A DNA stretch of 64,000 bases, from contig JBHIAH010000001.1 in assembly GCA_046758505.1 (NCBI GenBank), positions 64,001-128,000 on the forward strand, read 5' to 3'. Both the position numbers and the translations under genes were made by a program. Below, one piece after another: positions 371 through 63,992 of this stretch; position 1 is the stretch's first letter; each line of letters begins with the position of its first letter. A model generated the notes under the pieces. That model searched no databases. It was not told the DNA's origin and worked only from the letters and a program-made list of their open reading frames with translations. Source of the DNA: Candidatus Methylomirabilales bacterium. GTDB lineage: Bacteria; Methylomirabilota; Methylomirabilia; Methylomirabilales; CSP1-5.

Positions 371-633
371 GACCGATGACCGGTGTCCGACGACCGGCGA
401 CAGTGTAACCGGATCACGGTTCATAGTTCATGGTTCACGGCAAAAGCCGGATCCTGAATTTCCGAACCATGAACCGTTAACCATGAAACATGGGCTATTC
501 CCTATCAGCCGTGAACCCTCTAGCGTAAACTATGAACCGACTAGCCGTAACCTAGGTCCAATACCCAACACCTAATACCCGATACGCAATACCCTGATTG
601 CGGACGGCTGATTACTGACCGCTGATTGCGACT
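371..633. repeat. Mosaic of degenerate heptamer arrays (GACCGAT-, GGTTCAY/RTGAACC-, AATACCC-, TGATTGC-type)
   Basis: e.g. ggatcac ggttcat agttcat ggttcac (411-438) with complementary arm ccgaacc atgaacc gttaacc atgaaac (462-489); aataccc aacacct aataccc gatacgc aataccc (560-594). Confidence 0.88.
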
Positions 634-638
634 CCCCC

Positions 639-1487
639 TCAGAGGGGTGCGGCTAAGATTTCCTGAATGGCGCGCTCGCCCTGTTCCCGATTGGGTGCTT
701 TGCCGTGCCAGTCAGGATTGTTCTCCATGAAGGATACGCCCTTCCCCTTGACCGTGTCGGCGATGATGACGGTCGGCCTGCCCGTGACCGCTTCGGCTTG
801 CTCGAGTGCTTCCAGGACCGCGCGGATGTCGTGCCCATCGATATGGATGACATGCCAGCCGAAGGCCTCCCACTTGGCCCGGAAAGGTTCAAGGGCCAGG
901 GTCCGCTCGACAAAGTCGTCATTCTGGATCCCGTTCCGATCCACGACGGCGCATAGGTGGTCCAGTTCGTACTTCGGGGCGAGCATCGCCGCTTCCCAGA
1001 CCTGGCCGGCCTGGCACTCTCCGTCCCCGAGCAATGCGTAGACCCGGTACGTCTTCCGGGCCAATCGCCCCGCCAGCGCCATCCCAATGGCGATGGAGAG
1101 GCCCTGGCCCAGGGAGCCGGCGGCCGCCTCGACACCCGGGAGCCGCGCACCGGGCTCCCCCGGATACGGATGGCCCTGTAGGCGACTCCCCAGCTTCCGC
1201 AAGGTCAGGAGCTCCGCCGCCGGAAAGTACCCCGCCTTGGCCAATCCGGCGTACAGGACCGGGCAGCAATGGCCCTTGGAGAGGACAAAACGGTCCCGGT
1301 CGAGCCAGAAGGGATTATCGGCGCGGTGGCGCATCTTGTGGAAGAGGAGGGCGGTGACGATCTCGGTGGCGGAAAGGGACCCACCCGGATGCCCCGATCC
1401 GGCCTCGGTGAGCATCCGGATGATGTCGACCCGGATCTCTTGGGCGATCTTTTTCAGGTGCTGGATTTCGACGGTTGCCTGGGGCAT
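639..1487 (-). CDS. Transketolase, N-terminal (TPP-binding) subunit
   Basis: GSGHPGGSLS, DRFVLSKGH, LQGHP, GSLGQG, GDGE...N TPP motif, KGKGV, WHGK. Confidence 0.95.
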   Translation of the reverse strand: MPQATVEIQHLKKIAQEIRVDIIRMLTEAGSGHPGGSLSATEIVTALLFHKMRHRADNPFWLDRDRFVLSKGHCCPVLYAGLAKAGYFPAAELLTLRKLGSRLQGHPYPGEPGARLPGVEAAAGSLGQGLSIAIGMALAGRLARKTYRVYALLGDGECQAGQVWEAAMLAPKYELDHLCAVVDRNGIQNDDFVERTLALEPFRAKWEAFGWHVIHIDGHDIRAVLEALEQAEAVTGRPTVIIADTVKGKGVSFMENNPDWHGKAPNREQGERAIQEILAAPL

Positions 1488-1694
1488 GAGACCTCCGGAA
1501 AATCCGCTCCATTGTCTCCACGCGGGTGAGAGCTGTCAACAAAAATGAGAAGGAGGACCGCCCCAAGAGTGCCCGTCAGGCCAACGGCTGGGAACACGTT
1601 GCGAAGGGAATCGGGGACCGGGGGCGTACTTCCACCTCTTGCGAGGACTTGTACGATCTGGTACCCTAGATTCAAGAGCGAACGAGGAGGAACA

Positions 1695-2228
1695 ATGGCT
1701 ATCCTGAAAATTGCCCAAATGGGGAATCCGGTGCTCCGCCGCCGGGCCGAGCCGGTGCCGGTCCAGTCGATCAAGTCGCCGATTCTGCAGAAATTCATCG
1801 AGGACATGATCGAGACCATGCGCGAGTATAACGGCATCGGGTTGGCCGCGCCCCAGGTCCACGAATCGCTCCAGGTTCTGGTCATCGAGGCCCAGGAGAA
1901 CCCTCGCTATCCCCAGGCACCCAATATTCCCCTCACGATCCTCATCAATCCACGGGTGGAGCCTGTAAGCGACGAGGTGGAAGAGGACTGGGAAGGGTGC
2001 CTCAGCATCCCGGACATCCGTGGAAAGGTCCCCCGGCATCGCGAGGTGCGGGTCCGGGCCTACGATCGGGGGGGCAAAGAGCTCGACTTTTCTACCAAGG
2101 ATTTTTTCGCCCGGGTGATCCAGCATGAACACGATCACCTGCAGGGCATTCTCTTCCCGGACCGCATGCCGAAGCTCGATACGCTAACATTCATGCCCGA
2201 GTACCACCGGTACTGGGCAAACGAGTAA
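1695..2228 (+). CDS. def: Peptide deformylase
   Basis: GIGLAAPQV, EGCLS, QHEHDHLQG motifs; SD GAGGAGG before ATG 1695. Confidence 0.96.
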   Translation: MAILKIAQMGNPVLRRRAEPVPVQSIKSPILQKFIEDMIETMREYNGIGLAAPQVHESLQVLVIEAQENPRYPQAPNIPLTILINPRVEPVSDEVEEDWEGCLSIPDIRGKVPRHREVRVRAYDRGGKELDFSTKDFFARVIQHEHDHLQGILFPDRMPKLDTLTFMPEYHRYWANE

Positions 2229-2248
2229 CGGCGAAAAGGGAGCCTCCC

Positions 2249-2626
2249 GTGGGACAGGACGGCAAGACGATCCTGGCCTTCATTCCAGATCTCTTTTTTT
2301 CCACCAGGATTCGGGATACGGCAACACATCTGGGGCATCGGGCAACGCTCTCCCGCACGACGGATGATCTTATCCAGAAGGCGCAGGAGCTCTCTCCGGC
2401 CCTCCTGATTGTGGACCTGACCGCCGAGGGGATAAGCCTCGAAGGGCCACTGATGCATCTGCGAGCTGCAGCCGAGACCGTCCCCGTCCTCGCCTTCACC
2501 ACGCATGCCGCCTGGAAGCAGACGGCACCCCTGCACGGTCTCTGCAGCCAGGTGGTGACCAAAGAAGCCCTCGCCCGCGACCTTCCCGCGCTCCTGGGGA
2601 AGTACCTCGGCGGAGCGACCCCCTAA
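2249..2626 (+). CDS. Small CheY/receiver-like protein
   Basis: 125 aa alpha/beta pattern (ILAFIPDLFF...LLIVDL...VLAF); operonic between def and the GcvT-like gene. Confidence 0.6.
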   Translation: MGQDGKTILAFIPDLFFSTRIRDTATHLGHRATLSRTTDDLIQKAQELSPALLIVDLTAEGISLEGPLMHLRAAAETVPVLAFTTHAAWKQTAPLHGLCSQVVTKEALARDLPALLGKYLGGATP

Positions 2627-2641
2627 TCGGGGTAAGAAAGC

Positions 2642-3724
2642 ATGACACACCGAAGCCGCCTCTATGACCTCCATCAATCCCTCGGGGCCGCCTTTCGAGA
2701 CCAGGGCGGATGGGCGCTTCCCGATCGCTACCAGGACCCGGTCCAGGAACACCGCGCGGTTCGTGAAGCGGTGGGCGTGCTCGACCTTTCCTTCCGGACC
2801 CTGTATCGCGTCACCGGCGCCGACCGCACCCGGTTCCTGAACGGAATGCTCACCAATGACCTCAGCAAGCTCGAGGAGGGCCAGGGCTGCTACGCCTGCA
2901 TCCTGACCCCTCAGGGCAAGATCGTGGCTGACCTCGAGGTGTACGCCCTGCGCGACTGCCACCTTTTGGAGTTGGATGCTCGGTGGAAGGAGGGGGCGCT
3001 GGATCACCTGAACAAATATGTCATTGCCGACGACGTCACCTTCGAGGAGCTGGACCATTACACCCTGCTGGCCGTGCAAGGACCGGGGGCACCGATCCTC
3101 CTGGGACGCGTCCTGCCCGGCGCCAGCCTGCCGGGCGAGGAACAACGATGTGTCGAGGTGACCCTCGACAATCACGTCTGCCGGGTGATCCGGGCCTCGA
3201 TCACAGGAGAGGACGGATACAAGCTCGCAACTCCCCAAGACAGGGCCGAAGTCGTGTGGCAGACTTTTCAAGAGGGGGGCGCCACCCCGGCGGGGATGGC
3301 CGCGCTGAACAGCCTTCGGCTGGAGGCCGGCATTCCTTGGTTCGGCGTGGATTTTAACGAAGGAAACTTTCCCCAAGAGGCGGGGATTGAAGACAAGGCG
3401 GTCAGCTTCACCAAGGGATGCTACATTGGGCAGGAGTTCGTCATCCGGATCGCCCACCGGGGGCATGTCAACCGGCGGACCTCGGGGCTGACCATCGGGC
3501 ATGAACCGATCCCCCGCCCGGGGGACCGGGTCCTGCACGGGGACAAAGAGGTGGGGCACATTACCAGCGCCGCCCTCTCCCCCACCCTCGGAACGATTGT
3601 TGCCTTGGGGATGCTGCGGCGTGAGTCCCAGGAGCCGGGGACGGTCGTTCACGTCGAGAGCCAGGGAGAGCGTCGCCCCGCCGAAGTCACCCCCCTCCCC
3701 TTCTACCGCCGCCACGCCGGGTGA
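2642..3724 (+). CDS. GcvT/YgfZ-family folate-binding aminomethyltransferase-like protein
   Basis: GcvT-like N-terminus (EHRAVREAVGVLDLS), LRLEAG, KGCYIGQE signature. Confidence 0.9.
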   Translation: MTHRSRLYDLHQSLGAAFRDQGGWALPDRYQDPVQEHRAVREAVGVLDLSFRTLYRVTGADRTRFLNGMLTNDLSKLEEGQGCYACILTPQGKIVADLEVYALRDCHLLELDARWKEGALDHLNKYVIADDVTFEELDHYTLLAVQGPGAPILLGRVLPGASLPGEEQRCVEVTLDNHVCRVIRASITGEDGYKLATPQDRAEVVWQTFQEGGATPAGMAALNSLRLEAGIPWFGVDFNEGNFPQEAGIEDKAVSFTKGCYIGQEFVIRIAHRGHVNRRTSGLTIGHEPIPRPGDRVLHGDKEVGHITSAALSPTLGTIVALGMLRRESQEPGTVVHVESQGERRPAEVTPLPFYRRHAG

Positions 3725-3853
3725 CGGAGGGAGATGACCGCCGACCGCTGATTGTTTTCTTGCGGGGTGGTGTGGCACTCACGGCAGAGTCCAAAAGCAA
3801 CGAACGTCGGCCCGCCGGAAGTATCATCTGGACACAGGAGGGTAAAGATCACG

Positions 3854-4171
3854 ATGCTCTACTACATGGTTGAATTTGATCCCCGGCCCGGCGTCAACCG
3901 GACGCAGGTCACCCAGGCCTACCGGAAATTCGTCCATCACTTTCAGGGGACTTTCCCCACGATCAAGTTCATCGGCTTTTTTGCCCGGGATATTCTCCTC
4001 GGTTCACGTCCCCAGTATTTTGCCCTGTGGGAGGTCCCGAATTACGCCACCCTCGACGCCTGGAAGCGGGCTTTCTCTGCCGACAAGGAGGGTCGGAATG
4101 TCAGCAATGAGCTCAACGAGCTCGGCATGAACTGGGATGCCAAGATGGTGTCCAAAATCAACTTGGAATAA
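3854..4171 (+). CDS. Hypothetical protein, probable ferredoxin-like (dimeric alpha/beta barrel) fold
   Basis: MLYYMVEFD... 105 aa; SD GGAGG upstream; WEVPNYATLDAW pattern. Confidence 0.65.
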   Translation: MLYYMVEFDPRPGVNRTQVTQAYRKFVHHFQGTFPTIKFIGFFARDILLGSRPQYFALWEVPNYATLDAWKRAFSADKEGRNVSNELNELGMNWDAKMVSKINLE

Positions 4172-4317
4172 GCCGTCAGCGGTCCGCTGTCAGCAGTCAG
4201 CAGAACACGTGCTAACAACTGCCAGCCGTGAGCGTCTAAGAGTTGAAGGCTGATTGCTGGCAGCTGAATGCTGATGGCTCAGGAGCGGCGTTTGCCGACG
4301 GCCGACTGCTGACAGCC
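4172..4317. repeat. GTCAGCN heptamer array with complementary GCTGAY arm
   Basis: cgtcagc ggtccgc tgtcagc agtcagc ... gctgatt gctggca gctgaat gctgatg ... gccgacg gccgact gctgaca. Confidence 0.82.
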
Positions 4318-4333
4318 AAGTGAGAGGTGACTC

Positions 4334-5314: not shown

Positions 5315-5323
5315 ACCCGCCGC

Positions 5324-5387
5324 AGTCAGCCGTCAGCTATCAGCCATCAGCACAACCGTGATAGCCGCCAGCGGTCACCCATCGGCA
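5324..5387. repeat. NTCAGC heptamer array
   Basis: agtcagc cgtcagc tatcagc catcagc ... cgccagc ggtcacc catcggc. Confidence 0.75.
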
Positions 5388-6330: not shown

Positions 6331-6365
6331 CCCCTTCGCCTCGGCGTTCCGGTCGCAAGCACCCC

Positions 6366-12670: not shown

Positions 12671-12872
12671 GGGTTCATGGTTGAGGGTTCAGAGTCAGAG
12701 ACCTTGGCTCTTACGATGAACCAGTTGGACGGTTCAAGGTTGAGGGGTCAGGGATAGGGATTCTGGCTCTTGCCATGAACCAGATGGCGCAGAGTTGAGG
12801 GTTCAGGGTTGAGAGTTCAGGGATGAAGACTTTGGCTTTTACCCTGAGCTATGAACCATGAACCATGAACCG
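12671..12872. repeat. Three tandem ~60-90 bp units: GGTTCAN/GGTTGAG array + core GAYYYTGGCTYTTRCS + ATGAACC arm
   Basis: Cores gaccttggctcttacg (12700), gattctggctcttgcc (12759), gactttggcttttacc (12828); ends atgaacc x3. Confidence 0.88.
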
Positions 12873-30666: not shown

Positions 30667-31512
30667 CTACTCTACAAAATCAAGCTCGACCGGCCGGGGC
30701 AAGATCCCGCTTTCGAATCCCCGCTGCAGCAGTCTCTTCACCGCCCGCCGTCCCTCCGGTCCGTAGGACAGGGTTAGCTCATTCACATACATACCGACGA
30801 AGGTATCCGTAGAGGACCGGTCCATCCCGCGACCAAAATCCATGGCGTAACTGAGGGCCTCGTGCCGATGCAGGAGGGCGTACTGAATGCCGGCTTGGAG
30901 GAAATGGGCAATCTGCCGCATCCGGGCCCCTCCCAGGTCCCGCCGGACCGCGTTCACGCCCAGCGGCAGCGGGAGTCCCGTCTCGTCATGCCACCAGGCT
31001 CCCAGGTCCAGGCTGTTTACCAGCCCGTGCTCCTGATACGTGAGCTGCCCCTCGTGGATGATCAGGCCTGCGTCGTACCTCCCCTCGGCCACCGCTCCGA
31101 GGATCTGGTCGAAGGGGAGGACGGCGTACGGAAACTCCCCCAGGCAGACCCGCAGGGTGAGAAAGGCGGTGGTGAGGGTCCCGGGGATCGCGATGGTTTC
31201 CCGTCGGAGATCATCAGGGCTGAGAGGTTTCCGCGAGACCAGGATCGGCCCATACCGCTGCCCCATGCTGGCACCGTGGGGGAGCAGGGCATACTTGTCG
31301 GCCACATACGCGTACGCATGGAGCGACAGGGCAGTCACGGGAAGCCTCCCCTCCATCGCCCAGCGGTTCAGGGTCTCGATATCCCGCAGCACGTGGCGGA
31401 ACACGAGGTCGCCCGTCTCGAGCTTCCCCGCCGTGAGGGCGTAAAACATGAAGGCATCGTCCGGGTCCGGACTGTGCCCCACCTCGATAACCATTCGCGG
31501 TTCATGGTTCAT
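30667..31512 (-). CDS. mqnD: 1,4-dihydroxy-6-naphthoate synthase (futalosine menaquinone pathway); start 31512 or 31494
   Basis: HSPDPDDAFMFYAL, DIETLN, GLIIHEGQLTY, LPLPLG, FVGMYVNE. Confidence 0.92.
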   Translation of the reverse strand: MNHEPRMVIEVGHSPDPDDAFMFYALTAGKLETGDLVFRHVLRDIETLNRWAMEGRLPVTALSLHAYAYVADKYALLPHGASMGQRYGPILVSRKPLSPDDLRRETIAIPGTLTTAFLTLRVCLGEFPYAVLPFDQILGAVAEGRYDAGLIIHEGQLTYQEHGLVNSLDLGAWWHDETGLPLPLGVNAVRRDLGGARMRQIAHFLQAGIQYALLHRHEALSYAMDFGRGMDRSSTDTFVGMYVNELTLSYGPEGRRAVKRLLQRGFESGILPRPVELDFVE

Positions 31513-31525
31513 GGTTCACCGTCCA
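31495..31525. repeat. GGTTCAT heptamer array overlapping the mqnD start
   Basis: ggttcat ggttcat ggttcac cgtccat. Confidence 0.78.
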
Positions 31526-31537
31526 TGATTCGGTTCC

Positions 31538-45320: not shown

Positions 45321-46033
<713 letters not shown>

Positions 46034-46060
46034 ACATGGTGATCGATGGGCGGAGCACAG

Positions 46061-46993
46061 ATGGCGCTGAAACGGAAAGACCTGTTGACGATCCGGGAAC
46101 TGGAGCCGGAGGAGATCCATCTCGTCCTGGAGACCGCCGACTCGATGAAAGAAATCGCCTCCCGCGAGATCAAGAAGGTCCCCGCGCTCCGGGGGAAGAC
46201 CGTGATCAACCTCTTCTACGAGCCGAGCACCCGGACCCGGACCTCTTTCGAGATCGCCGGCAAGTGGCTCAGTGCGGACGTGGTCAATATCGCCACTTCC
46301 GCCTCGTCCGTCACTAAGGGCGAGTCGCTCCTCGATACCGGCAAGACCCTGCAGGCCATGCGCCCGGATGTGGTGGTGATCCGCCACCCGGTCCCGGGGG
46401 CACCCAAGATGCTGGCCGATCGCCTTCCAGCCTCGATCATCAACGCCGGGGACGGGGCCCATGAGCACCCCACTCAGGCCCTCCTCGACCTCTTCACCAT
46501 CCGCGAGCGTCTGGGACGCTTGGACGGACTCAGGGTTGCCATCGTGGGAGACATCAGCCACAGCCGCGTCGCGCGATCCGGCATTCGGGCCATGCGCAAA
46601 GTGGGGATGGAGGTGCGCGTGGCGGGACCGGCCACGCTCCTGCCGCGCTTTTCAGAGCAGCTCGGGGTCCAGGCCACCACCGATGTGGAAACCGCCATTG
46701 CCGATGCCGATGTCATCATGATGCTTCGGATCCAACGGGAGCGGCAGGGCCCGACCCTGCTCCCCTCGCTTCGCGAGTACAGCCGCCTCTTCGGCCTCAC
46801 CGTCGAGCGCTTGAAGAAGGCCAAGGAGGAGGTCCTGATCATGCACCCGGGGCCGATCAACCGGGGGGTAGAGATCGCCCCGGAGGTGGCCGACGGCCCG
46901 TACAGCCTCATTCTCGATCAGGTCACCAACGGGGTGGCCATTCGCATGGGCTTGCTGTACCTCTTGACCGGCGGGCAGGGGAGCGAGCGCTGA
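46061..46993 (+). CDS. pyrB: Aspartate carbamoyltransferase catalytic subunit
   Basis: [34 protein letters not shown]. Confidence 0.97.
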
Positions 46994-46994
46994 G

Positions 46995-47075
46995 ATGGTT
47001 CAGCGTTCATGGTTGAGGGTTCAGAGTTCAGAGATAGAGATTCTGGCTCTTACCATGAACTGTGAACCGTGAACC
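46995..47075. repeat. Palindromic heptamer element with conserved core between pyrB and pyrC
   Basis: ggttcag cgttcat ggttgag ggttcag agttcag - gattctggctcttacc (47039-47054) - atgaact gtgaacc gtgaacc. Confidence 0.88.
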
Positions 47076-47089
47076 AATCGGAGAGTGAG

Positions 47090-48433
47090 ATGCAATTGTT
47101 GATCACTGGAGGGCGAGTGATCGATCCGGCCAGCGGGATCGATGACACCCTCGATATCCTGGTCGAGGGTGGGCAGATCCTTCAGGTGGAAAAAAGCGTT
47201 CAGGGTTCAGGGTTCAGGGTTCAGGGGAAGAAGAACAAAAAGCCAGGGAACCAGGACCTATCAAGTACGCATGTCAATCGTGTGATTGATGCCGCCGGCA
47301 AAGTGGTCGTGCCGGGCCTGATTGACATGCACGTCCATCTCCGGGAGCCGGGACGAGAAGACGAGGAGACCATCGCCTCCGGAACCGCAGCTGCCGCCCG
47401 GGGCGGATTCACCTCGATCTGCTGCATGCCGAATACCGAGCCGGTCAACGACACCGCCTCGGTCACCGAATACATCCGGGAGCAGGCCCAAAAGGTCGGG
47501 CGCACGCACGTTTTTCCCATCGGATGTATCTCGCGAGCGCAGCGAGGCCAAGAGCTGGCGGAGATCGGGGACCTCGTCGCGGCCGGGTGCGTCGGGCTCT
47601 CCGACGACGGCAAGCCGGTCGTCGATGCCGACCTCATGCGCCGGGCGATGGAGTACGCCACCATGTTCGACGTCCCGCTGCTCCCTCACTGCGAGGATCT
47701 CTCCCTCTCCGCCGGGGGGAGCATGCACGAGGGGCGCGTGAGCACCGAACTAGGACTCAAGGGGATCCCTGCTCCCGCCGAAGCGGTCATGGTGGCAAGA
47801 GACATCTTGCTGAGCGAGTACACCGGGGCCCGCCTCCACATCTGTCACGTGAGCACCGCCGAATCGGTCCGTCTTATCCGGGAGGCCCGGGCACGGGGGG
47901 CGCGTGTGAGCGGCGAGGCAACCCCGCACCACCTGATCCTCACCGACGAGGCCGTCCGGGGCTTCGACACCAACGCCAAGATGAATCCCCCCCTCCGCGC
48001 GGCGGAGGACGTGACCGCGCTCCGGGAGGCACTCATCGACGGAACCATCGAGGTGATTGCTACTGATCACGCCCCCCATGCCCGCTCCGAGAAAGAGATG
48101 GAATTCGATTACGCTCCCTTTGGCATCATTGGGCTCGGGACGGCCCTCGGCCTCATCCTCACCGAGTTCTATCACAGCCGCCTCCTCACCCTTCCCATGA
48201 TCGTCGAGCGCATGGCAGCGGCCCCCGCCCGAATCCTCAAGCTTAAGCACAAGGGGACCCTGGCCCCCGGTGCCGATGCGGACATCACGCTCATCAATCC
48301 GAACCAGGAGTGGATCGTCGAGGAGCAGGGATTGCATTCCAAGAGCAACAACTCCCCCTTCATCGGTTGGAAGCTCAAGGGGAGAGCGGTGATGACGCTC
48401 GTGGCCGGGCAGGTGGTCTGGGAGACGCCATGA
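47090..48433 (+). CDS. pyrC: Dihydroorotase (contains in-frame repeat-derived insertion)
   Basis: [33 protein letters not shown]. Confidence 0.96.
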
Positions 48434-49695
48434 AGCCCGCAATGCTGGCCCTCGCAGACGGCACCACCTTTGAGGGGACCGCCTTCGGTGCGGAAGGGGA
48501 GTGTGTCGGCGAGGTCGTCTTCAACACGGCCATGACCGGCTACCAGGAGATCCTCACCGATCCCTCATACAAGGGGCAGATCGTCTGCATGACTTATCCC
48601 CTCATCGGTAACTACGGGATCAACCTTGAGGACATCGAGTCCCGGCGCCCCTTCGTGGAAGGGTTTATCGTCAAGGAGGGGTCTCCGTACCCCAGCAACT
48701 GGCGTAAAGCCCAATCGCTCGACGCGTACCTCAAGGAATGGGGGATCGTGGGCATTCAGGGAATCGACACGCGTGCCCTCACCAAGCATATCCGGGACGA
48801 GGGTGCGATGGAAGGGGTGATCTCGACGGTCGACCTTTCTGCCCAAGGCCTCATCGCGAAGGCACGATCCTCTCCCGGTCTTATTGGGCGCGATCTGGTC
48901 ACCGAGGTCACCTGTGCCGAGCCCTTCCGATGGTGGCAGGGTGCGTGGCGCTGGCCCCATGGCTATCTCGATGACCGCGGACCGACGGCCGACGACCGCG
49001 AAGCCCCGAAAACCCAGCTCGACCTCTTCGGTCATCGGTCATCGGTCACCGGTCATCGCTTTCGAGTGGTGGCCATAGACTGCGGCATCAAATACAACAT
49101 CCTCCGAGAGCTGGTGAGCACCGGTTGCGATGTGGTGGTGGTCCCGGCTTCAACCCCCGCCGACGAGATCCTCGCCTCTGACCCGGATGGCATCTTTCTC
49201 AGCAACGGTCCCGGGGACCCCGAAGGAGTTCCATACCTCGTCGAGACGACCCGACAATTACTAGGCAGACGGCCGATCTTCGGGATCTGTCTCGGGCATC
49301 AGATCCTGGGGCTCGCCCTGGGCGGCCGGACGTATAAACTCAAATTCGGCCATCATGGGGCGAACCATCCGGTCAAGGAGGTTCACACCGGGAAGGTCGA
49401 GATCACGACCCAGAATCACGGCTTTGCGGTCGACATCGACGCCTTCCCGGGCGAAGACGTCGAGCTCACCCACGTCAACTTAAACGACGGGACCGTTGAA
49501 GGCATGCGGCACACCCGACTCCCCCTCTTCTCCGTCCAGTACCATCCCGAGGCCTCCCCGGGTCCCCATGACTCGCGGTACCTCTTTCAGCGTTTTGTAG
49601 CCTTGATGAACCAGGAGCACGGCACGCGAGAGCCGGTGGAGCTGCCCGGGGGCGAGCGAACCCGGGTCCGCCAGCGCGAAGACATCACCATATGA
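48430..49695 (+). CDS. carA: Carbamoyl-phosphate synthase small subunit (contains in-frame hairpin insertion)
   Basis: [43 protein letters not shown] overlap with pyrC. Confidence 0.96.
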
Positions 49696-49704
49696 ACAAC
49701 CGGG

Positions 49705-49840
49705 CAGTTGTCAGCATTTGGCAGACAGCACAAATAAACTGAAGCCGACAGCGGACAGCGGACAACTAGATAACGATAGCTGATTGCTGATCGCTCACCG
49801 CTGACAGATGTTTTCATCGGTCGTCGGTCACCGGTCACTA
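49705..49840. repeat. Heptamer arrays (GCTGAYN and CGGTCRY types) between carA and the 4-OT gene
   Basis: gccgaca gcggaca gcggaca ... gctgatt gctgatc gctcacc gctgaca ... cggtcgt cggtcac cggtcac. Confidence 0.82.
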
Positions 49841-49853
49841 CGAGGAGGGAGCC

Positions 49854-50039
49854 ATGCCAGTCGTACACATCCACATGCTCGAAGGGCGCAGCGTCGAGCA
49901 GAAAAAGAAGCTGGCCGAGGCCGTCACTGCCGCCTTGGTCAACATCGCCAAAACCACCCCAGAGGCGGTTACCATCGTCATCGACGATTATCCGCGGACC
50001 AGCTGGGCCAAGGGTGGCAAGCTCATGGCCGACCAGTAG
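49854..50039 (+). CDS. 4-oxalocrotonate tautomerase family protein
   Basis: N-terminal Pro, EGRSVEQKKKL, WAKGG; 61 aa; SD GAGGAGG. Confidence 0.92.
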   Translation: MPVVHIHMLEGRSVEQKKKLAEAVTAALVNIAKTTPEAVTIVIDDYPRTSWAKGGKLMADQ

Positions 50040-50066
50040 GAACGGGTAACCGGGGCACGTACTGCA

Positions 50067-53334
<3,268 letters not shown>

Positions 53335-53345
<11 letters not shown>

Positions 53346-54249
53346 GATGCACTCCCTCCGCCAGATCCAGCCGGACTACTTCCTCCAGCGCTTTGTATCG
53401 CCCCCCATGGCCTTTCAGCCTGGGCAGTTCGTCATGGTCAAGCCCTCGGGATCGCTCGATCCCTTCCTGCCAAGGGCCTATAGCATCCTGAGAGTCCAGC
53501 GCCACATGACGGGGAGGAGAGGGAAGCGGGAAGACGTGGTGGAGATCCTCTATAAGGTGTTGGGAAAGGGGACCACCGCGCTTTCGCGCCTCAAGCCCGG
53601 CGATCGGGTGGACCTGCTGGGCCCGCTGGGAAATGGCTATCGCGTGCCGCAGGACCTCACCACGGCCCTGCTGGTAGCGGGAGGAATCGGGGTGCCCCCG
53701 GTCGTCGCGCTCGCTGAACGGCTGGCCGGTTCACAGTTCCCGGTTCACAGTTCAGGGCAAGGAAAAGCTGGACTTCGGTCGTCGGTCGTCGGTCGTCCCA
53801 AAGTGGTGGCCTTTATCGGGGGCAAATCGTCGACCGATGTTTTGTGTCTCACCGACCTTCGAAAGGCAGGAGCCGCGCTTCAGGTGGCCACCGAAGATGG
53901 CAGCCTCGGGCACCAGGGGCTTGTGACCGATCTCCTCGAATCGTATGTGCGGTCATCGGTCAACGGACTTCGGTTAACGGTTTATGCATGCGGTCCTCAC
54001 GCGATGCTTCACGCCGTTGCTCGGATCGCCGAGCGATTCCAAATCCCCTGCCAGGTTTCCCTGGAGGCCCACATGGCGTGCGGCTTCGGGGCCTGTATGG
54101 GGTGCGTTATACCAGTTCAGAGTTCAGAGTTGAGAGTTGAGAGTTCGAGACAAACTATGAACCGTGAACCGTCAACCATGAACCAGCGGAGCTATAAGTT
54201 GTGTTGTAAGGATGGGCCGGCCTTCGACGCCTCGGAGATTGTCTGGTGA
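53335..54249 (+). CDS. pyrK: Dihydroorotate dehydrogenase electron transfer subunit (three repeat-derived segments); start GTG 53335 or ATG 53347
   Basis: [41 protein letters not shown]...CKDGP. Confidence 0.93.
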
Positions 54250-55262
54250 GTGCGGGCCAGAAAAAGCGTTCACGGTTCACGGTTCACGGTTCACGGAAAA
54301 AGGGAAGCCGTCGTCGGTCGTCGGTCACCGGTCGTCGGTCGTCGCTCCGTCGTCCGGACCTGGCCGTAGAGATTGCCGGGATCCGATTGAAAAACCCGGT
54401 GATGACCGCCTCCGGCACCTTCGGGTACGGGACCGAGTTTACCCCCTTCTTCGATCTCAACGCGTTAGGCGCCATCATTGTGAAGACGGTGACCATGCAT
54501 CCGCGACTGGGAAACCCACCCCCCCGGATCGTGGAGACGCCGGCGGGGATGCTCAACTCGATTGGGCTCCAGAATGTCGGAATCGACGCCTTTTGCCAGC
54601 AGAAGCTCCCGTTCCTCCGAACGCTGGCCACTCCGCTCGTGGTGAACATCGCGGGAAAGTCAGTCGAGGAGTTCGCCGACCTGGCCAAGCGTCTCTCGGA
54701 CGCCGAGGGAGTGGCCGGGGTCGAACTCAATATCTCCTGCCCGAATGTGGCCGGGGGGCTCGATTTCGGCACCGATCCGCGCCTCACGTATGCAGTGGTG
54801 AGGGCGGTCCGGCAAACCACCCCCCTGCCCATCGTCCCCAAGCTCTCTCCGAATGTGACCGATATTACCGTGATCGCCCGGGCCGCCGCCGATGCGGGGG
54901 CGGATGCTCTCTCGCTGATCAACACCATCGTCGGCATGGCCATCGACGTTCGCAGCCGGAAAGCCACACTCCCCGGAGCCACCGGGGGTCTCTCCGGCCC
55001 AGCCATCCGCCCCATCGCGGTCCGAATGGTCTGGGAGGTCGCCCAGGCGGTACAACTCCCCCTCATCGGCATCGGGGGGATCACGACGGGCGAAGACGCC
55101 GTAGAGTTCCTCCTTGCCGGAGCCAGCGCAGTCCAGGTGGGGACTGCCAATTTCCTCGACCCGCTGGCACCCATGAAGGTCCTGGCAGGCATCGAGGATT
55201 ATCTTGGCCGCCACGGCCTTGACAGCGTGACCGATGTGATCGGGGCCGCCACCCCCCCCTGA
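54246..55262 (+). CDS. pyrD: Dihydroorotate dehydrogenase B catalytic subunit with repeat-encoded N-terminal extension
   Basis: LKNPVMTASGTFG, ELNISCPN, KLSPNVTDI, GGLSG; GTGA overlap with pyrK. Confidence 0.95.
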   Translation: MSAGQKKRSRFTVHGSRKKGSRRRSSVTGRRSSLRRPDLAVEIAGIRLKNPVMTASGTFGYGTEFTPFFDLNALGAIIVKTVTMHPRLGNPPPRIVETPAGMLNSIGLQNVGIDAFCQQKLPFLRTLATPLVVNIAGKSVEEFADLAKRLSDAEGVAGVELNISCPNVAGGLDFGTDPRLTYAVVRAVRQTTPLPIVPKLSPNVTDITVIARAAADAGADALSLINTIVGMAIDVRSRKATLPGATGGLSGPAIRPIAVRMVWEVAQAVQLPLIGIGGITTGEDAVEFLLAGASAVQVGTANFLDPLAPMKVLAGIEDYLGRHGLDSVTDVIGAATPP

Positions 55263-55398
55263 CCCCCCGACCCGGCGAGGATCCCCAGCACGGAAGACGG
55301 TGCCAGGTTTCTCCGTTACCTTATCAAAGGGAAAAGGCAGAGGAGAACGAGCGGGCGTTGGCTGGAGCCCGGCCCTGGCACCCCAGAAGGAGGAAACC

Positions 55399-55842
55399 AT
55401 GATCAGCGGCAAGGCATCTCACGTGGGAGAAGTGATCGTCGCCCGATTTGAGCACGGAGAGGATCTGTTCGCGTCGCTCGAAAAGATTTGCCGCGAACAG
55501 GATATCAAGAACGGTGTGATCCTGACGGGCTTTGGCTCGATCGATCGTGCCCATTTCCTCGGGGCCAGCTCCCCCGCCTGGCCCGATCTCGAGTTCTACC
55601 GCGCCCGGCACGAAGAAGGGCTCGAGATCCTGGCGATCTCGGGGGTGATCGCCGATTACGAGGTCCACGCCCACATGGTCCTCTCCAACGAGGACCGGGC
55701 CATGGGCGGGCACATCGAGCCGGGCTGCCGGATCCTGACCCTGTGTGAACTGGTCATCGCGAAGCTCGACGGAATCCGATTGAAGCGGCTCCCCGATCCA
55801 GAACTGAAGCAGAACTTGCTGCAGGTCGTCGCCTCGGACTAA
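55399..55842 (+). CDS. PPC/DUF296 domain protein
   Basis: ARFEHGEDL, GFGSI, EILAISG, HAH, GGH. Confidence 0.88.
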   Translation: MISGKASHVGEVIVARFEHGEDLFASLEKICREQDIKNGVILTGFGSIDRAHFLGASSPAWPDLEFYRARHEEGLEILAISGVIADYEVHAHMVLSNEDRAMGGHIEPGCRILTLCELVIAKLDGIRLKRLPDPELKQNLLQVVASD

Positions 55843-55845
55843 AGC

Positions 55846-55960
55846 AGTCCACAGTCCAATGTCCGACGTCCAAGGTCCAAGACCGCCGAGAAAAAACAGC
55901 CCCAGGGACAGGAAGTGTTGAGAGCTGAGAGACTGGACTTTGGACCTTGGACTTTGGACT
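55846..55960. repeat. Palindromic NGTCCRN heptamer element between convergent genes
   Basis: agtccac agtccaa tgtccga cgtccaa ggtccaa ... tggactt tggacct tggactt tggact. Confidence 0.88.
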
Positions 55961-55967
55961 AAATGAC

Positions 55968-56753
55968 CTAGGTGCCGAAGCGACGCTTGCGCTGCTGATA
56001 ATTACGGATGGCTCGGAGAAGATCGATCTTTCGAAACGCGGGCCAGCAGGCGTCACAGAAATAGAACTCGCTGTAGGCGCTCTGCCAGAGGAGGAAGCCG
56101 GAGAGGCGCACCTCGCCGCTCGTCCGGACGATGAGATCCGGATCGGGAAGATCATACATATACAGATACTTGCCGATCTCTTCGGGTGTGATTTCTTCCG
56201 CAACCTGCGCGAGGGCAGCCCCCCGCCGTTCCCGATCCCTCAAGAGCTGCTTTACCGCATCGGCGATCTCTTGTCTTCCCCCGTACCCCACGGCGATATT
56301 GAGGCAAAAGTTATTGTAGGCATGGGTGGCCTCCTGCGCGTGCGCGATGGCCGCCTGGAGAGATGGGGGCAAAAGTTCCAGCTGGCCCACCGCCCGGACC
56401 CGGACCCCCTTCCGATGAATCTTCGGATCCACCGCCACGGCTCGCAGCTTTGACTCGATGAGATCCAGGAGGCGGTTCAGTTCCCCGTGAGGGCGGGAAA
56501 GATTTTCAGTGGAGAGAACATAGATGGTGATGATCCGGATCTGCAGCTGCTCCAGCCAATCCAACACCTGCTCCAACTTGTCCGCCCCCAGCCGGTGTCC
56601 CTCAAGCGGATCCGCAAAGCCGAGTTCCCGGGCATAGCGCCGGTTGCCATCCAGGATGAGGCCGATGTGCGTGGGTAACACCCCCCGCTGGACCTCGCGA
56701 AGGAGTCGACGCTCGTAGAACCGGTACAAGAGAGAGATCGGATCACACATCAT
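55968..56753 (-). CDS. uppS: cis-Isoprenyl transferase (UppS family, possibly short-chain type)
   Basis: HIGLILDGNRR, STENLSR, YGGRQEI, DLIVRTSGEVRLSGFLLWQ, RRFG. Confidence 0.9.
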   Translation of the reverse strand: MMCDPISLLYRFYERRLLREVQRGVLPTHIGLILDGNRRYARELGFADPLEGHRLGADKLEQVLDWLEQLQIRIITIYVLSTENLSRPHGELNRLLDLIESKLRAVAVDPKIHRKGVRVRAVGQLELLPPSLQAAIAHAQEATHAYNNFCLNIAVGYGGRQEIADAVKQLLRDRERRGAALAQVAEEITPEEIGKYLYMYDLPDPDLIVRTSGEVRLSGFLLWQSAYSEFYFCDACWPAFRKIDLLRAIRNYQQRKRRFGT

Positions 56754-58354: not shown

Positions 58355-58542
58355 GTACCGCTTGGCCGGGACACGGCCCCCCCAAGGGTCGGAGGGTCGG
58401 TGCCCGCGCGCGGTCGCCATGCCTAAGAAGCTACCAAGCCGAAGACACCCTCATTTCCCCGTATCGGGGTGACGCACCCCTCCTGCGGGTACGATCAAGG
58501 TTTATTCCCCCCGCTCCAACCCCTTGGACAGGAGAGGCTCGA

Positions 58543-59703
58543 ATGAAGAAACCGCACCTTTTTGCCCCCGGCCCGAGCCCCGTCCCCCCGGAGGCGTTAC
58601 TGACAATGGCCCGTCCCATCCTTCACCACCGGGCCCCGGAGTTCGAGACGCTCCTCGCCGAGGTGCGGGAGGACCTCAAGGCCCTGTTCCAGACGACAGA
58701 AGAGGTCCTGCTCTTCACCGCTTCGGGGACCGGGGGGATGGAGGGGGCGGTGGTCAACACGCTGTCGCCGGGCGAGAAGGCACTGGTGATCCGCAGTGGA
58801 AAGTTTGGAGAGCGGTGGGGAGAGATCTGTCAGGCCTACGGCATCCCCTTCACACCCGTCGACGTTCCCTACGGGAAGGCGGTGGACCCCGGGCTCATCG
58901 CCGCCGCCCTCAGGAAGGATCCTGATGTTGCTGCGGTCTTCAGCACCCATAGCGAAACCTCGACGGGAGTCCTCCACGACATCCAGGCCATCGCCGAGGT
59001 TGTCCGCAAGACCCCGACCCTCCTCGTGGTGGATGCGATTACCAGTCTAGGGGTCGTGGACCTCCCCGTGGATGCCTGGGGCGTGGACGTGGTGGTCGCC
59101 GGCTCCCAGAAGGCTCTGATGCTGCCACCCGGGCTCACCATGGTCGGGGTCAGCCAAAAGGCGTGGGCGGTGGTGGAGAAGGCTCGACTCCCAAAGTACT
59201 ACTTTGACTTTGCCGCCGAGCGAAAGAATCTGCTCAAGAACCAGTCGCACTTTACCCCGGCCGTCTCGCTGGTGGTTGGGCTTCGAGAGACCCTCAGGAT
59301 GATCCTGAGCGAGGGGCTTCCTCATGTCTTTCAGCGCCACGACCGGCTCGCAGCCGCCATGCGCTCCGGCGTCACCGCCCTGGGCCTGGACCTCTTTGCC
59401 GAGCGACCGAGCCCCGCGGTCACTGCGGTGAAGGTCCCCCCAGGCATCGACGGCGGGGCGATTGTGAAGACGCTTCGGGCAAAACACGGGGTAACCATTG
59501 CAGGCGGTCAGGGATCGCTGAAGGGGAAGATCTTCCGGGTGGCGACGATGGGGTACGCAGACGCGTCCGATGTGGCCGTCGCCCTCTCGGCGCTGGAACT
59601 GACGCTCGCGGAGCTGGGGTACCCGGTCAAACTGGGCGAAGGCACCCGGGCTGCCCAGGAAGTCCTGGCAGGCATGTCGGATGTGCAGAGTCCGAGGTCC
59701 TAG
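58543..59703 (+). CDS. Class V PLP aminotransferase (alanine-glyoxylate/serine-pyruvate type, likely SerC substitute)
   Basis: PGPSPV, SGTGGME, HSETSTG, VDAITS, GSQKALMLPPG; adjacent to serA. Confidence 0.92.
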   Translation: MKKPHLFAPGPSPVPPEALLTMARPILHHRAPEFETLLAEVREDLKALFQTTEEVLLFTASGTGGMEGAVVNTLSPGEKALVIRSGKFGERWGEICQAYGIPFTPVDVPYGKAVDPGLIAAALRKDPDVAAVFSTHSETSTGVLHDIQAIAEVVRKTPTLLVVDAITSLGVVDLPVDAWGVDVVVAGSQKALMLPPGLTMVGVSQKAWAVVEKARLPKYYFDFAAERKNLLKNQSHFTPAVSLVVGLRETLRMILSEGLPHVFQRHDRLAAAMRSGVTALGLDLFAERPSPAVTAVKVPPGIDGGAIVKTLRAKHGVTIAGGQGSLKGKIFRVATMGYADASDVAVALSALELTLAELGYPVKLGEGTRAAQEVLAGMSDVQSPRS

Positions 59704-59750
59704 CCTTCACCCCTTCGCGACGTTGGACGTTGGATCTCGGACGTGGGACA
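59675..59750. repeat. NGTCCRN heptamer element overlapping the aminotransferase stop
   Basis: tgtcgga tgtgcag agtccga ggtccta ... ttggacg ttggatc tcggacg tgggaca. Confidence 0.7.
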
Positions 59751-59766
59751 TAACAGGGAGAGACCG

Positions 59767-61347
59767 ATGCGCGTCTTAGTCAGTGACGCCCTTTCGACCA
59801 GGGGCCTCGAGGTGCTCCGCCAGCACCCAGGCATCCAGGCTGATGTCCGCCCAAAGATCCCACCCGAGGAGCTCATGCAGGTGATCGATCAGTACGATGC
59901 CCTGATCGTGCGGAGCGCTACCAAGGTGACCGCCGACGTGATCCAGGCTGGGAAGCAGCTCAAGGTCATCGGTCGGGCCGGCGTCGGGGTGGACAACGTC
60001 GATGTCGAGGCAGCCACCGCCCAGGGGGTCGTAGTGATGAACACCCCAACCGGCAACACCATCACCACCGCCGAGCACTCCATTTCCCTCCTCCTGGCCC
60101 TCTCGAAAAATATTCCCCAGGCGGCGGCCTCCCTGCAGGGGGGGCGATGGGAGAAGGGGAAGTTCCTGAACGTCGAGCTTTACAACAAAACCCTGGGGAT
60201 CATCGGGTTGGGGCGGATCGGCTCAGAGGTCGCCAAACGGGCCAAGGGCTTTGCCATGCGCGTCATCGCGTATGATCCCTTCATCTCGGCCGACGTGGCG
60301 AACCGCATCGGCGTCGAGCTTGTCGATCTGGATGCGCTTTACCGGCAGGCAGACTTCATCACCATTCACGTCCCGCTCGGCCCCGACACCCATCATATGA
60401 TTAACCGAGAGACCATCGGTCTGATGAAGCGGGGAATCCGGATCATCAACTGCGCCCGCGGAGGCGTGGTGGACGAGGAGGCCCTCTACGAGGCCATGGT
60501 GAGCGGCCACGTGGGGGGCGCTGCCTGTGACGTCTTTGAAAACGAGCCGAGCATTTCGAACCCGCTCCTCTCCCTGGAGAACTTCATCGGCACTCCCCAC
60601 CTGGGGGCCGCCACCGCCGAGGCCCAGGAGAACGTGGCCGTCGCCATCGCCCAGCAAGTGGTGGAGTACCTCACCACGGGCGTGATCCGGAACTCGGTGA
60701 ATACCCCCTCCATCGAGCCGGAACTCTTGGCCAAGATCCAGCCCTATCTGACCTTATCGGAGAAGCTGGGGCGGCTCGACTCGCAGCTTGCCGAGGGGCG
60801 CTTCCAGGAGATCCGGATCGCATACACCGGGGAGGTCGCGAACTACGACACCTCGCCCCTCACGGCGGCAGTGGTCAAGGGGGTGCTCGACCCGATCACG
60901 TCCGGCACCATCAACATCGTCAACGCCCCCGCCTTTGCCCGGCAGCGCGGGATCCGTGTCGTCGAGTCCAAGAGCAGCCAGGAAGAGAACTACGCGAGCC
61001 TCATCTCGGTCATCATCCAAACCGACCGAGGGCAGAGCCACGTGGCCGGGACCCTGTTCAGCCGGCGGGAGCCCCGCGTGGTCCGGATCGACGAATTCTC
61101 CCTTGAGGCAGTTCCAGAGGGGTACCTCCTCATCTTTTCCAACCTGGACGTCCCGGGAGTGATCGGGAAGATCGGCACCATTCTTGGGCAAAATCAGGTC
61201 AACATCGCCGGGATGGTCCTCGGCCGAGAGAAGCAGGGCGGCCAGGCGGTTTCCGTCGTGAACGTCGACAGCCCGATCCCCACCCCAGTCCTCGACCAGA
61301 TCCGCCAGATGCCCAACATCGTGTACGCCAAGGTGGTGAAAGTCTGA
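59767..61347 (+). CDS. serA: D-3-phosphoglycerate dehydrogenase (long form, ASB + ACT)
   Basis: GRAGVGVDNVD, GLGRIG, NCARGG, DVFENEP, PHLGA, ACT DVPGVIG. Confidence 0.96.
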   Translation: MRVLVSDALSTRGLEVLRQHPGIQADVRPKIPPEELMQVIDQYDALIVRSATKVTADVIQAGKQLKVIGRAGVGVDNVDVEAATAQGVVVMNTPTGNTITTAEHSISLLLALSKNIPQAAASLQGGRWEKGKFLNVELYNKTLGIIGLGRIGSEVAKRAKGFAMRVIAYDPFISADVANRIGVELVDLDALYRQADFITIHVPLGPDTHHMINRETIGLMKRGIRIINCARGGVVDEEALYEAMVSGHVGGAACDVFENEPSISNPLLSLENFIGTPHLGAATAEAQENVAVAIAQQVVEYLTTGVIRNSVNTPSIEPELLAKIQPYLTLSEKLGRLDSQLAEGRFQEIRIAYTGEVANYDTSPLTAAVVKGVLDPITSGTINIVNAPAFARQRGIRVVESKSSQEENYASLISVIIQTDRGQSHVAGTLFSRREPRVVRIDEFSLEAVPEGYLLIFSNLDVPGVIGKIGTILGQNQVNIAGMVLGREKQGGQAVSVVNVDSPIPTPVLDQIRQMPNIVYAKVVKV

Positions 61348-61348
61348 G

Positions 61349-62644
61349 GTGATCCCCACCGCCATTCCCAAAGGGGTACGCGTTCTCTCCCCGGCCGAGG
61401 CAGCCCGCCTCAGATGGGTCGAGAAGACGCTTCTCTCCGTCTTTCAGCGCTGGGGTTTTCGGGAAGTCCTGACCCCCACCTTCGAATATCTCGACGTCTT
61501 CGCCCACGGGGCGGGGGATGTGGTTGAAGGAAAGGCCTTCAAGTTCGTGGACCGACAGACCGGGCTTCTCCTGGCGCTGCGGCCTGATCTGACCCCCCAG
61601 GTGGCGCGGATGGTCGCTGCCACCATGCGGCATCATCCCCTCCCGCTCCGGCTCGCGTACTCCACCTCGGTCTTCCGCCACGAGGAGCCCCAGGCAGGAC
61701 GGCAGCGGGAGTTCTTTCAGGCCGGCGTTGAGCTGATCGGCTCGGACCGGCCCGAGGCAGATGCCGAGATGATCGCCATGGCGGTCGAGGGATGCCAGGA
61801 GGCCGGGCTCCAACGTTTCCAGATCGACGTCGGCCAGGTAGAGTACCTCCGGGGGATGCTCAACGCGCTCAACCCGTCGCCCGAACTCCGCCGAAAGATC
61901 GTTTCCGCCCTCCGACGCAAGGACGCGTTGGAGCTCGAACTCACCCTGAAGCCGCTCCAGGCCGAGGCGAGATTGAAAGAGGGGATCCTGAATCTGACCA
62001 CCCTGTACGGGGACGAAGCGGTCCTGGAACAGGCGAAGGCGTGGGCCGTCACCGAGCAGTCCCGGGTGGCTCTCGAGAACCTGATCGACGTCTACGCAGT
62101 CCTCAAGACCTATGGTCTGGCCGAGCACATCATCATCGATTTGGGCGAGACGTATGCCTTCGACTACCACACCGGGGTCGTCTTTCAGGTCTTCACCGAG
62201 TCGCTCGGCTACCCCATCGGTGGAGGCGGGCGCTACGATAACCTGATCGGCCGGTTCGGCTACCCCTGTCCCGCCACCGGGTTCGCCTTCGAGCTGGAGA
62301 AGGTTCTCGGCGCCCTGGAGGCAGAGGGAATCCTGCCGGCGGATCAAGGGCCGGACTTCCTCATCATCGATTTCAATCCGGACAAGCGCCAGGCCCTTCA
62401 CATCGCCCGGGCCCTGCGGGGCAAGGGCTACGCTGTAGCCAGGGACATCATCCGGCGCGACCTCGAGGGGTCGCTCGACTATGCCCGAGTGAGCGCGATC
62501 CCCCGCGCTCTCATCCTAGGCCTCGATGGAATGCCCGGGGATACCATGTCCCTGCGAGATCTTACGAGAGGGACTGAGACAACCTTCTCTATTCCGGAGT
62601 TTATCCAGCGCGTCAGGGATGGGACACTCCAATGGCCAACGTGA
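61349..62644 (+). CDS. hisZ: ATP phosphoribosyltransferase regulatory subunit
   Basis: HisRS-like: LRPDLTPQVAR, REFFQAGVELIG, YHTGVVF, GGGRYDNL, ATGFAF; upstream of purA. Confidence 0.9.
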   Translation: MIPTAIPKGVRVLSPAEAARLRWVEKTLLSVFQRWGFREVLTPTFEYLDVFAHGAGDVVEGKAFKFVDRQTGLLLALRPDLTPQVARMVAATMRHHPLPLRLAYSTSVFRHEEPQAGRQREFFQAGVELIGSDRPEADAEMIAMAVEGCQEAGLQRFQIDVGQVEYLRGMLNALNPSPELRRKIVSALRRKDALELELTLKPLQAEARLKEGILNLTTLYGDEAVLEQAKAWAVTEQSRVALENLIDVYAVLKTYGLAEHIIIDLGETYAFDYHTGVVFQVFTESLGYPIGGGGRYDNLIGRFGYPCPATGFAFELEKVLGALEAEGILPADQGPDFLIIDFNPDKRQALHIARALRGKGYAVARDIIRRDLEGSLDYARVSAIPRALILGLDGMPGDTMSLRDLTRGTETTFSIPEFIQRVRDGTLQWPT

Positions 62645-63936
62645 TCGTGGTCGGCACGCAGTGGGGGGACGAGGGCAAGGGAAAGGTCGTTGACACCATC
62701 AGCGAATCCTTCGACGCCGTGGCCCGGTATCAGGGGGGGAACAACGCGGGACACACCGTGGTGGTGGGCAACGAAAAGGTGATCCTCCACCTCGTTCCCT
62801 CGGGCATCCTTCGGAAAGGGAAGACCTGCATCCTCGGAAACGGCGTGGTGGTCGATCTCCCGGGCCTCACCCATGAACTCAACCAGCTCCGCCGCCTGGC
62901 TGTGAACGCCGAGGGACATCTGTTCATCGGGAAAAACGCCCACCTGGTCCTCCCCTACCACAAGATCCTGGACCACGAGCGGGAGAGGGACGCCGCCCGA
63001 CCCATCGGGACCACCGGACGCGGGATCGGTCCCGCGTACGCCGATAAGGTCGCCAGAGTGGGGATCCGCATCGGCGATCTCTTCGACCCGGCCCTGTTCC
63101 GCGAGCGACTGCGCGCCAATCTGGCCGAGAAGCAGGCCCGCGCCACGAAAGAGAGTGCGCTGCACACCCTCGATCCCGAGGCCGTCTTTGACGAGCAGAT
63201 GGCCCACTTCCGCGAAGTCGAGGCCTTTCTGGTCGACGCCTCGGCGGTCCTGAACCGGATGATCGACGAGGGAAAGAAGATCCTGTTTGAGGGGGCGCAG
63301 GGCACCCTCTTGGATGTGGACCTGGGGACGTACCCGTATGTGACCTCGAGCAGCGCCACAGCCGGAGGGGCCTGCATCGGCACCGGGGTCGGCCCGACCC
63401 GGGTTGACGGGGTCCTGGGCGTCATCAAGGCCTACACAACGCGGGTGGGGGAAGGGCCGTTCCCCACCGAGCTCAGAGATAACATCGCCGAGGAACTCCG
63501 CAAGCGCGGAGGAGAGTACGGGGCCACCACAGGCAGACCCAGGCGATGCGGGTGGCTCGACGCGATTGCCCTTCGCTATGCCATCCAGGTGAACGGCCTC
63601 AGTACGTTGGCGCTGACAAAGCTGGACGTCTTGGATCCGTTCCCGGTACTCCGGATCTGCCGCGCCTATCGCTACCGGGGTCACACCCTGGAGGATTTCC
63701 CCAACGAGACTGATATCCTGACGGAATGCCAGCCGGTCTACGAGGAGATCGAGGGGTGGCAGGAAAGCACGGTCGGGCGCACCTCGATCGCGGAACTGAC
63801 CCAGGAGTGCCGCGCCTTTCTAGACCGGCTCGAGGCCATCCTCGGTATCAACATCTCCATCATCTCCACGGGCCCCGAGCGGGACCAGACCATCCTCCTC
63901 CCCACCCCCACCTTGAAGCAGTGGGGCCTGGTGTAG
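62632..63936 (+). CDS. purA: Adenylosuccinate synthetase
   Basis: QWGDEGKGK, GGNNAGHT, GTTGRGIGPAY, EGAQG, GATTGRPRRCGW. Confidence 0.98.
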   Translation: MANVIVVGTQWGDEGKGKVVDTISESFDAVARYQGGNNAGHTVVVGNEKVILHLVPSGILRKGKTCILGNGVVVDLPGLTHELNQLRRLAVNAEGHLFIGKNAHLVLPYHKILDHERERDAARPIGTTGRGIGPAYADKVARVGIRIGDLFDPALFRERLRANLAEKQARATKESALHTLDPEAVFDEQMAHFREVEAFLVDASAVLNRMIDEGKKILFEGAQGTLLDVDLGTYPYVTSSSATAGGACIGTGVGPTRVDGVLGVIKAYTTRVGEGPFPTELRDNIAEELRKRGGEYGATTGRPRRCGWLDAIALRYAIQVNGLSTLALTKLDVLDPFPVLRICRAYRYRGHTLEDFPNETDILTECQPVYEEIEGWQESTVGRTSIAELTQECRAFLDRLEAILGINISIISTGPERDQTILLPTPTLKQWGLV

Positions 63937-63992
63937 TTCACGGTTCACAGCCAATAACCAGCAGTCAGCAGCCAGCTGTCAGCCGTCGGCAA
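63935..63992. repeat. Heptamer arrays downstream of purA
   Basis: agttcac ggttcac ... accagca gtcagca gccagct gtcagcc gtcggca. Confidence 0.75.

Follow-up and report, generated by a model that had tools for sequence, protein, structure and literature searches.

The window analysed here, a 64,000-nucleotide stretch of a Candidatus Methylomirabilales genome (G000:C1:64001-128000; G000, the genome under study, is 96.8% complete, and other G numbers denote relatives), holds the pyr operon and other core genes, and between and within these genes lie arrays of degenerate heptamer repeats, often arranged as a left arm, a spacer and an inverted right arm. The arrays have a common architecture and share a small set of words, they co-occur with a gene of the four-helix-bundle family PF05635, and at orthologous sites in relatives their words change at constant length and independently in each arm. 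The loci of the window are listed below, where A to F denote the main heptamer words and z is the folding score against shuffles.

371..401: left-type arm of word B (GACCGAY)
408..493: complete gene-less hairpin with word-A arms (GTTCA / TGAAC) between transketolase genes, beside a transketolase match at 639-1487; z -4.6
558..630: two right-type arms, the first of word F (CCAATAC), the second of a C-like word
4169..4317: word-C hairpin with an extra arm, 5' of msrP; z -4.7
5320..5387: word-C left arm, its right partner decayed; z -0.8
12672..12872: tandem pair of small word-A hairpins of 59 nt (by eye, similar to 46997-47077) and one full word-A hairpin
31488..31529: lone word-A arm
45936..46038: hairpin of word A at pyrR-pyrB; relatives have word B, word C or no array
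46997..47077: hairpin of word A at pyrB-pyrC; relatives have word B, B plus D, or no array
47189..47233, + strand: lone word-A arm in frame in pyrC
48969..49060, + strand: word-B hairpin in frame in carA, its spacer encoding QLDLF
49705..49840: composite locus of C and B arms between carA and a tautomerase gene; absent in G003 and G006
53727..53797, + strand: chimeric pair in frame in pyrK, left arm word A, right arm word B
53950..53980, + strand: short word-B arm in frame in pyrK
54108..54188, + strand: hairpin of word A in frame in pyrK; G011 and G012 have word C, and several other families lack the insert
54265..54356, + strand: chimeric pair (A left, B right) in a predicted N-terminal extension of pyrD
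55845..55960: hairpin of word E (GTCC / GGAC), flanked by convergent genes; z -3.8
59675..59749: hairpin of word E, decayed, 5' of serA; z -0.2
63936..63991: short arm of word A and left arm of word C, 3' of purA, with right arms just beyond the window end

Heptamer arrays in the window and across the genome

Every locus named in the original prediction carries period-7 arrays. At a cut-off of at least 16 matches in 21 positions, a period scan of the window returned 22 such arrays, against 0 in each of 50 codon-block shuffles; the other periods from 4 to 15 (14 excepted) gave 0-2 arrays. Extended to all of G000, as that prediction had proposed, the scan found 504 period-7 arrays against 2, 3 and 2 in three shuffles, and a looser cut-off gave 701 arrays grouped in 395 clusters, 547 of which arrays could be assigned to six words, leaving 154 unassigned. 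A handful of words is common to hundreds of loci, most arms comprise 4-6 units, and the unit number differs between arrays. Some words are separated by steps of a single base (GTTCA, GTCCA, GTCCG, GACCG). The five or more flavours described earlier, said to tend to keep a GT at a fixed phase, are only part of the picture: a sixth word, TTTCG, is common genome-wide, and the left arms GACCG and TTTCG contain no GT, so that the phase is not universal. Nor are 36.7-41 kb and 43.4-45 kb special in being empty, since the array at 31.5 kb is the only one classified between 13 kb and 45.9 kb.

The pairing of arms is equally specific to this period, with 75 adjacent inverted pairs at period 7 and 0, 0, 1, 1 and 0 at periods 5, 6, 8, 9 and 10. 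Neighbours of the same word in opposite orientation stand in left-then-right order in 96 cases vs 2 (n=98); the polarity of word B was set from the data, and without this word the count is 88 vs 2 (n=90). Neighbours of different words in G000 hold the order too (37 vs 8). The claim that the arrays form long imperfect hairpins is borne out for 9 of the 12 window loci folded (z <= -3.5 against shuffles) and fails for 5324-5387, 49705-49840 and 59675-59750, which do not reach that value. In word-A hairpins, paired arms resemble each other no more than random pairs do (0.25 vs 0.29 +/- 0.03; 55 of 57 units) and are thus not mirror copies at variable positions, which argues against local inverted duplication. 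An apparent strong dissimilarity of paired arms (0.115 vs 0.206) became smaller and non-significant under a second unit definition and was discarded.

The placement of arrays, which we assessed with rough gene calls made for this analysis, is biased. Arrays occupy 236 of 1575 (15%) co-directional or convergent junctions vs 6 of 190 (3%) divergent ones, and their number climbs from 20 to 81 of 351 over the codon-score quartiles. This bias could reflect either a tie to transcription or selection that spares promoters from damage. The intragenic copies noted in the original prediction proved to be a main feature, with six loops in the pyr operon alone: in G000, 23 arrays lie well within called genes, for example pyrC, carA, topA, His-biosynthesis genes and a P-type ATPase, and pyrK holds three further in-frame loops. 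The units span 60-120 nt, with differing words and spacers. As to pyrD, its start may be a GTG overlapping the pyrK stop (54246-54400), which would add to the protein an N-terminal stretch derived from the repeat; 8 parsed genomes keep this frame open. We also observed hairpins of an 8-base word nested in word-C hairpins (G000:C2:117248 and C113:1345-1610); the same 8-base word flanks a PF05635 gene in G009 (L059).

Arm-by-arm word changes at orthologous sites

Words at orthologous sites were compared across relatives, with swaps read genome by genome and not as independent events on a tree; the parsed rows exclude 5 genomes for carA and 1 for topA. Depending on the relative, junctions between pyr operon genes carry word A, B, C or D, or no array. 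Inside proteins, the loop of an ABC-auxiliary gene is 31-32 codons long in 11 of 12 genus genomes and nevertheless carries four left words and three right words. G000 and G005 are alike there in the left arm (97%) and not in the right (45%), while G005, G008 and G013 have a common right arm and most of the spacer, combined with three different left arms; in genus g8 the loop measures 32-34 codons and shows no visible repeats. The topA loop spans 34-36 codons in 11 of 13 family rows, as B/B or A/A, the two longer rows being B/A.

The carA loop (window 49005-49030) offers a complementary view, in that a QL-x-LF spacer is conserved in all 12 parsed rows, from several families, while the arms vary; by these alignments, the spacer is older than its arms. 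G020 and G027 differ in word here, four units against four in the same register, and in each of the two the right arm does not match the left; the loops of G021 and G016 are of similar length and repeat-free. The conserved peptide resembles the beta-clamp-binding motif. A loop set from P-type ATPases was dropped as evidence, since paralogues were mixed in.

Constant loop length, word changes in one arm and the kept left-right order together indicate that arms act as separately replaceable modules, which substitute for existing sequence; plain insertions occur at some sites as well. Within heptamer loops of relatives we also found a second, non-periodic palindrome in frame, with a CTTCGRCRAGCTCAG core (L014, L018, L008, L229, L235), of which G000 has 7 copies.

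The PF05635 gene and its arms

PF05635 is the family of 23S rRNA intervening-sequence proteins (S23p) (PMC4990558). In Coxiella, tandem heptamers precede the S23p open reading frame (ORF) of the 23S intervening sequence in strain-variable number, and mobility has been suspected (PMC4990558). G000 has a single match, outside the window on contig C116, with an internal stop and inverted heptamer-like arms; a six-frame profile search gave no PF05635 remnant besides it (next best E 5.6). A PF05635 ORF between arms is found in 0 window hairpins and only in this broken copy and at loci of relatives, 23 of 31 of which have the family.

By eye, and with several minus-strand rows shown in reverse, the flanks of 29 loci in relatives include arms resembling all six main words beside the gene (A at L061 and L046, B at L039, C at L036 and L055, E at L048, F at L034, and a D-like word at L043). 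Of 80 outside loci, 77 have usable flanks, and period-7 arrays stand on either side of 19 of these, whereas single-flank controls gave 1/77 and 2/69, and 11 of these 19 are inverted matches vs 2.1 in shuffled pairs; period-6 arrays occur at 22 of the 77. The array period follows the protein subfamily, with period 6 at 25 of 30 loci, period 7 at 22 of 34 and none at 10 of 12. Besides the hexamer-arm subfamily (the 25/30 loci), another, often adjoining tRNA-like sequence, is mostly armless (L112, L117, L127, L136 and L157 for the two subfamilies together).

Gene and arrays are also absent together in family f4, where PF05635 was found in 0 of 4 genomes, word-A triples were not found, and arrays number 0 in 88 kb, against densities in G018 and G016 of 1.1 and 3.7 per 10 kb. 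Fifteen gene-loaded sites were tried, of which 2 have their flanks side by side in G000; both, loaded in G009 and G006, are gene-less arrays of a different word in G000. No gene other than PF05635 was bracketed by matching arms in a motif test of G000, where two gene-holding long pairs exist, and GxxExxY (PF13366), considered as cassette cargo, has no match in G000. The earlier interpretation is thus borne out in part: its suggestion of an active element with a trans-acting factor is supported by presence/absence and word changes among relatives and by the four-helix-bundle genes it had pointed to, which carry the same arms. It had also noted no candidate mobiliser gene in the window, where PF05635, Y1 transposase and reverse transcriptase all have no match.

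Competing explanations and a cassette model

Dispersed 7-nt arrays, mostly intergenic, are familiar from cyanobacteria as short tandemly repeated repetitive (STRR) sequences. Dispersed and mostly intergenic heptamers are also described for Xanthomonas and Nostoc, in Xanthomonas with inverted pairs and between-species variation (PMC4692102), and for Beggiatoaceae (PMC4679880). Like the Xanthomonas and STRR heptamers, the arrays studied here are many, short, largely intergenic and often in inverted pairs. They differ in using at least six words, against one word per study in the accessible text of PMC4692102 and PMC4679880, where heptamers are explained by slippage, quadruplexes or regulation and where we found no link to PF05635.

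Slippage, the published hypothesis for heptamer excess (PMC4692102), could in principle suffice if the arrays were independent simple-sequence repeats whose words drift by mutation and homogenisation and which permissive loops and spacers retain. Variable unit number and words one base apart agree with it. It does not account for so few words across hundreds of loci, for the nearly exclusive arm order, for the match of array words to PF05635 flanks, or for arrays being nil in a relative family of a 63%-GC genome, and we consider it rather improbable.

A second option is that whole units move as non-autonomous transposons, of the MITE (miniature inverted-repeat transposable element) or repetitive extragenic palindrome (REP) type, driven in trans by, for example, Y1 transposases resembling REP-associated tyrosine transposases (RAYT). 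REP elements and bacterial interspersed mosaic elements, with their RAYT, form hundreds of mostly extragenic palindromes, and G000 is comparable in the number and placement of its hairpins and in having Y1 genes. Nested and empty sites do occur, some spacers are shared (18 pairs score >=24 vs 0 shuffled, C38:414 and C92:9067 being nearly identical), and G000 has 12 PF01797 (Y1/RAYT-like) genes (on C14, C3, C13, C31, C35, C70, C28, C6, C9 and C25). Each of these, however, has short inverted ends of its own, of which the 3' copy falls on or next to the stop codon, and heptamer arms lie at the ends of 0 of 12, so that Y1 was rejected as mobiliser and the REP/RAYT analogy drawn earlier does not carry over; PF01797 was moreover not found in array-rich G001, G003 and G004 (92-97% complete). 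The copies, unlike those of a MITE, do not share homology from end to end: 49 of 70 spacers join no cluster, and nested arm sequence is what holds the two larger clusters together. Target-site duplications are not in excess, with flank words of >=4 nt shared in 17 of 96 units, whose ends are approximate, vs ~21 in shuffled pairs. Since whole-unit insertion also leaves one-arm swaps around a conserved spacer unexplained, we find it improbable.

Each hairpin might instead be a scar, a full cassette from which the gene was deleted between the arms, as the two gene-less G000 sites loaded in G009 and G006 would suggest. The word differs at both of these sites, however, no remnant besides C116 was detected, a stop-bearing full gene is hardly possible inside carA or topA, and the carA spacer predates its arms, all of which makes scars quite improbable. 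That the arrays are host regulatory RNA structures under selection, such as RNase III sites tuning operon mRNA levels, is very improbable: the junction and codon-score biases are compatible with it, and RNase III cuts the Coxiella intervening-sequence stem at the first heptamer (PMC4990558), but paired arms do not match each other, one and the same site can be chimeric, single-armed or empty, and, contrary to the idea that the element is recognised as RNA structure, the sense strand folds better in only 43 of 82 hairpins vs 362 of 526 control spacers.

On balance we lean towards the view that the arrays are gene-less derivatives of PF05635 cassettes, turning over by templated arm-by-arm overwriting. 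A cassette would consist of a PF05635 gene with an arm of roughly four to five heptamers on each side, the two arms being inverted. A copy of a donor arm would replace an older arm, or unconstrained DNA in a loop or spacer, leaving length nearly unchanged, and we infer this templating from donor arms from the pattern of changes. The protein, whose nearest solved structure is 2GSC (five four-helix bundles according to the title of its cited paper, and resembling Avd, a protein of diversity-generating retroelements (DGRs)), may by this likeness be pentameric and bind its own word, perhaps with one heptamer per subunit; different words would then have been left by successive cassettes. One candidate catalyst is a repair or replication enzyme of the host, working on DNA that is single-stranded or cruciform, and such a DNA-level enzyme best fits the lack of strand preference; an RNA intermediate fits less well and we think it unlikely.

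Several observations weigh against this cassette model. We sought a catalytic partner and found none. The sole PF05635 gene of G000 is broken and its arm word is minor (15 two-unit matches), which leaves the dominant words without a resident gene. Word-A arrays are also present in G030 (99% complete), G004 and G008 with no PF05635 match, which means that arrays persist after loss of the gene or have no need of it. The f4 contrast comes from a single lineage, and 58 of 77 outside loci have no period-7 arrays on both flanks. Word-specific binding by the protein is putative, some sites are the plain insertions mentioned above, and with words one base apart, mutation and homogenisation could mimic some swaps. 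Selection could likewise account for fixed length inside proteins; both such selection and a stepwise drift from one word to a similar one are real alternatives.

One could speculate further, and tentatively, that a small pentamer resembling Avd recognises a 6-8-base word of its own and thereby drives a constant-length homing overwrite of host DNA, rival arms and loops, which would make this a new selfish system. Rival cassettes would then compete for sites and repeatedly recode loops of essential proteins, and unexplained bacterial heptamer repeats and 23S intervening sequences would be unified. Published accounts leave unexplained both why heptamers are in excess in bacteria and how ORF-bearing 23S intervening sequences arose and move, and one cassette family could explain both; constant-length arm swaps offer a precise, testable signature and a route for block rewriting of essential-protein loops.

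As in ORF-bearing 23S intervening sequences (PMC4990558), a PF05635 gene lies between inverted arms in the cassettes of relatives. Unlike them, the arrays sit at gene junctions and in protein loops, with no window locus in rRNA (Rfam at gathering score gave 0 matches over the window, and five weak, chance-level ones in 45800-56100); nearly all copies are gene-less, words are many and arms change singly. Rickettsia palindromic elements, units of ~150 bp that encode a conserved peptide, occur in frame within housekeeping genes unrelated to one another (PMC10969869), and the in-frame palindromes in pyrC, carA, pyrK, topA, a His-biosynthesis gene and a P-type ATPase are reminiscent of them; by that description, ours differ in being periodic, in their mostly unique spacers and arm swaps, and in having no conserved ~150-bp peptide unit. 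The repeat class is known, but the cassette system is apparently undescribed in print, and neither a cassette outside rRNA nor arm replacement was found in the literature, judged by titles and abstract beginnings in a library with few subscription journals. The word changes of single arms at nearly constant length suggest an arm-by-arm overwriting process that is apparently undescribed.

Another parallel is with the DGRs, which overwrite a target with a template copy, and whose Avd, a pentamer with five subunits contacting one RNA stem-loop, has a structure resembling that of PF05635 (4DWL vs 2GSC) (PMC10053308, 10.1101/2023.10.23.563531). Unlike in DGRs, reverse transcriptase (PF00078) was not found in G000 nor in 21 of 31 genomes; in the 10 where it was found it does not track the arrays, and it was rejected as mobiliser. 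In G027, a heptamer-armed PF05635 cassette (C28; L282:1225-3621) lies between a reverse transcriptase gene and cas1.

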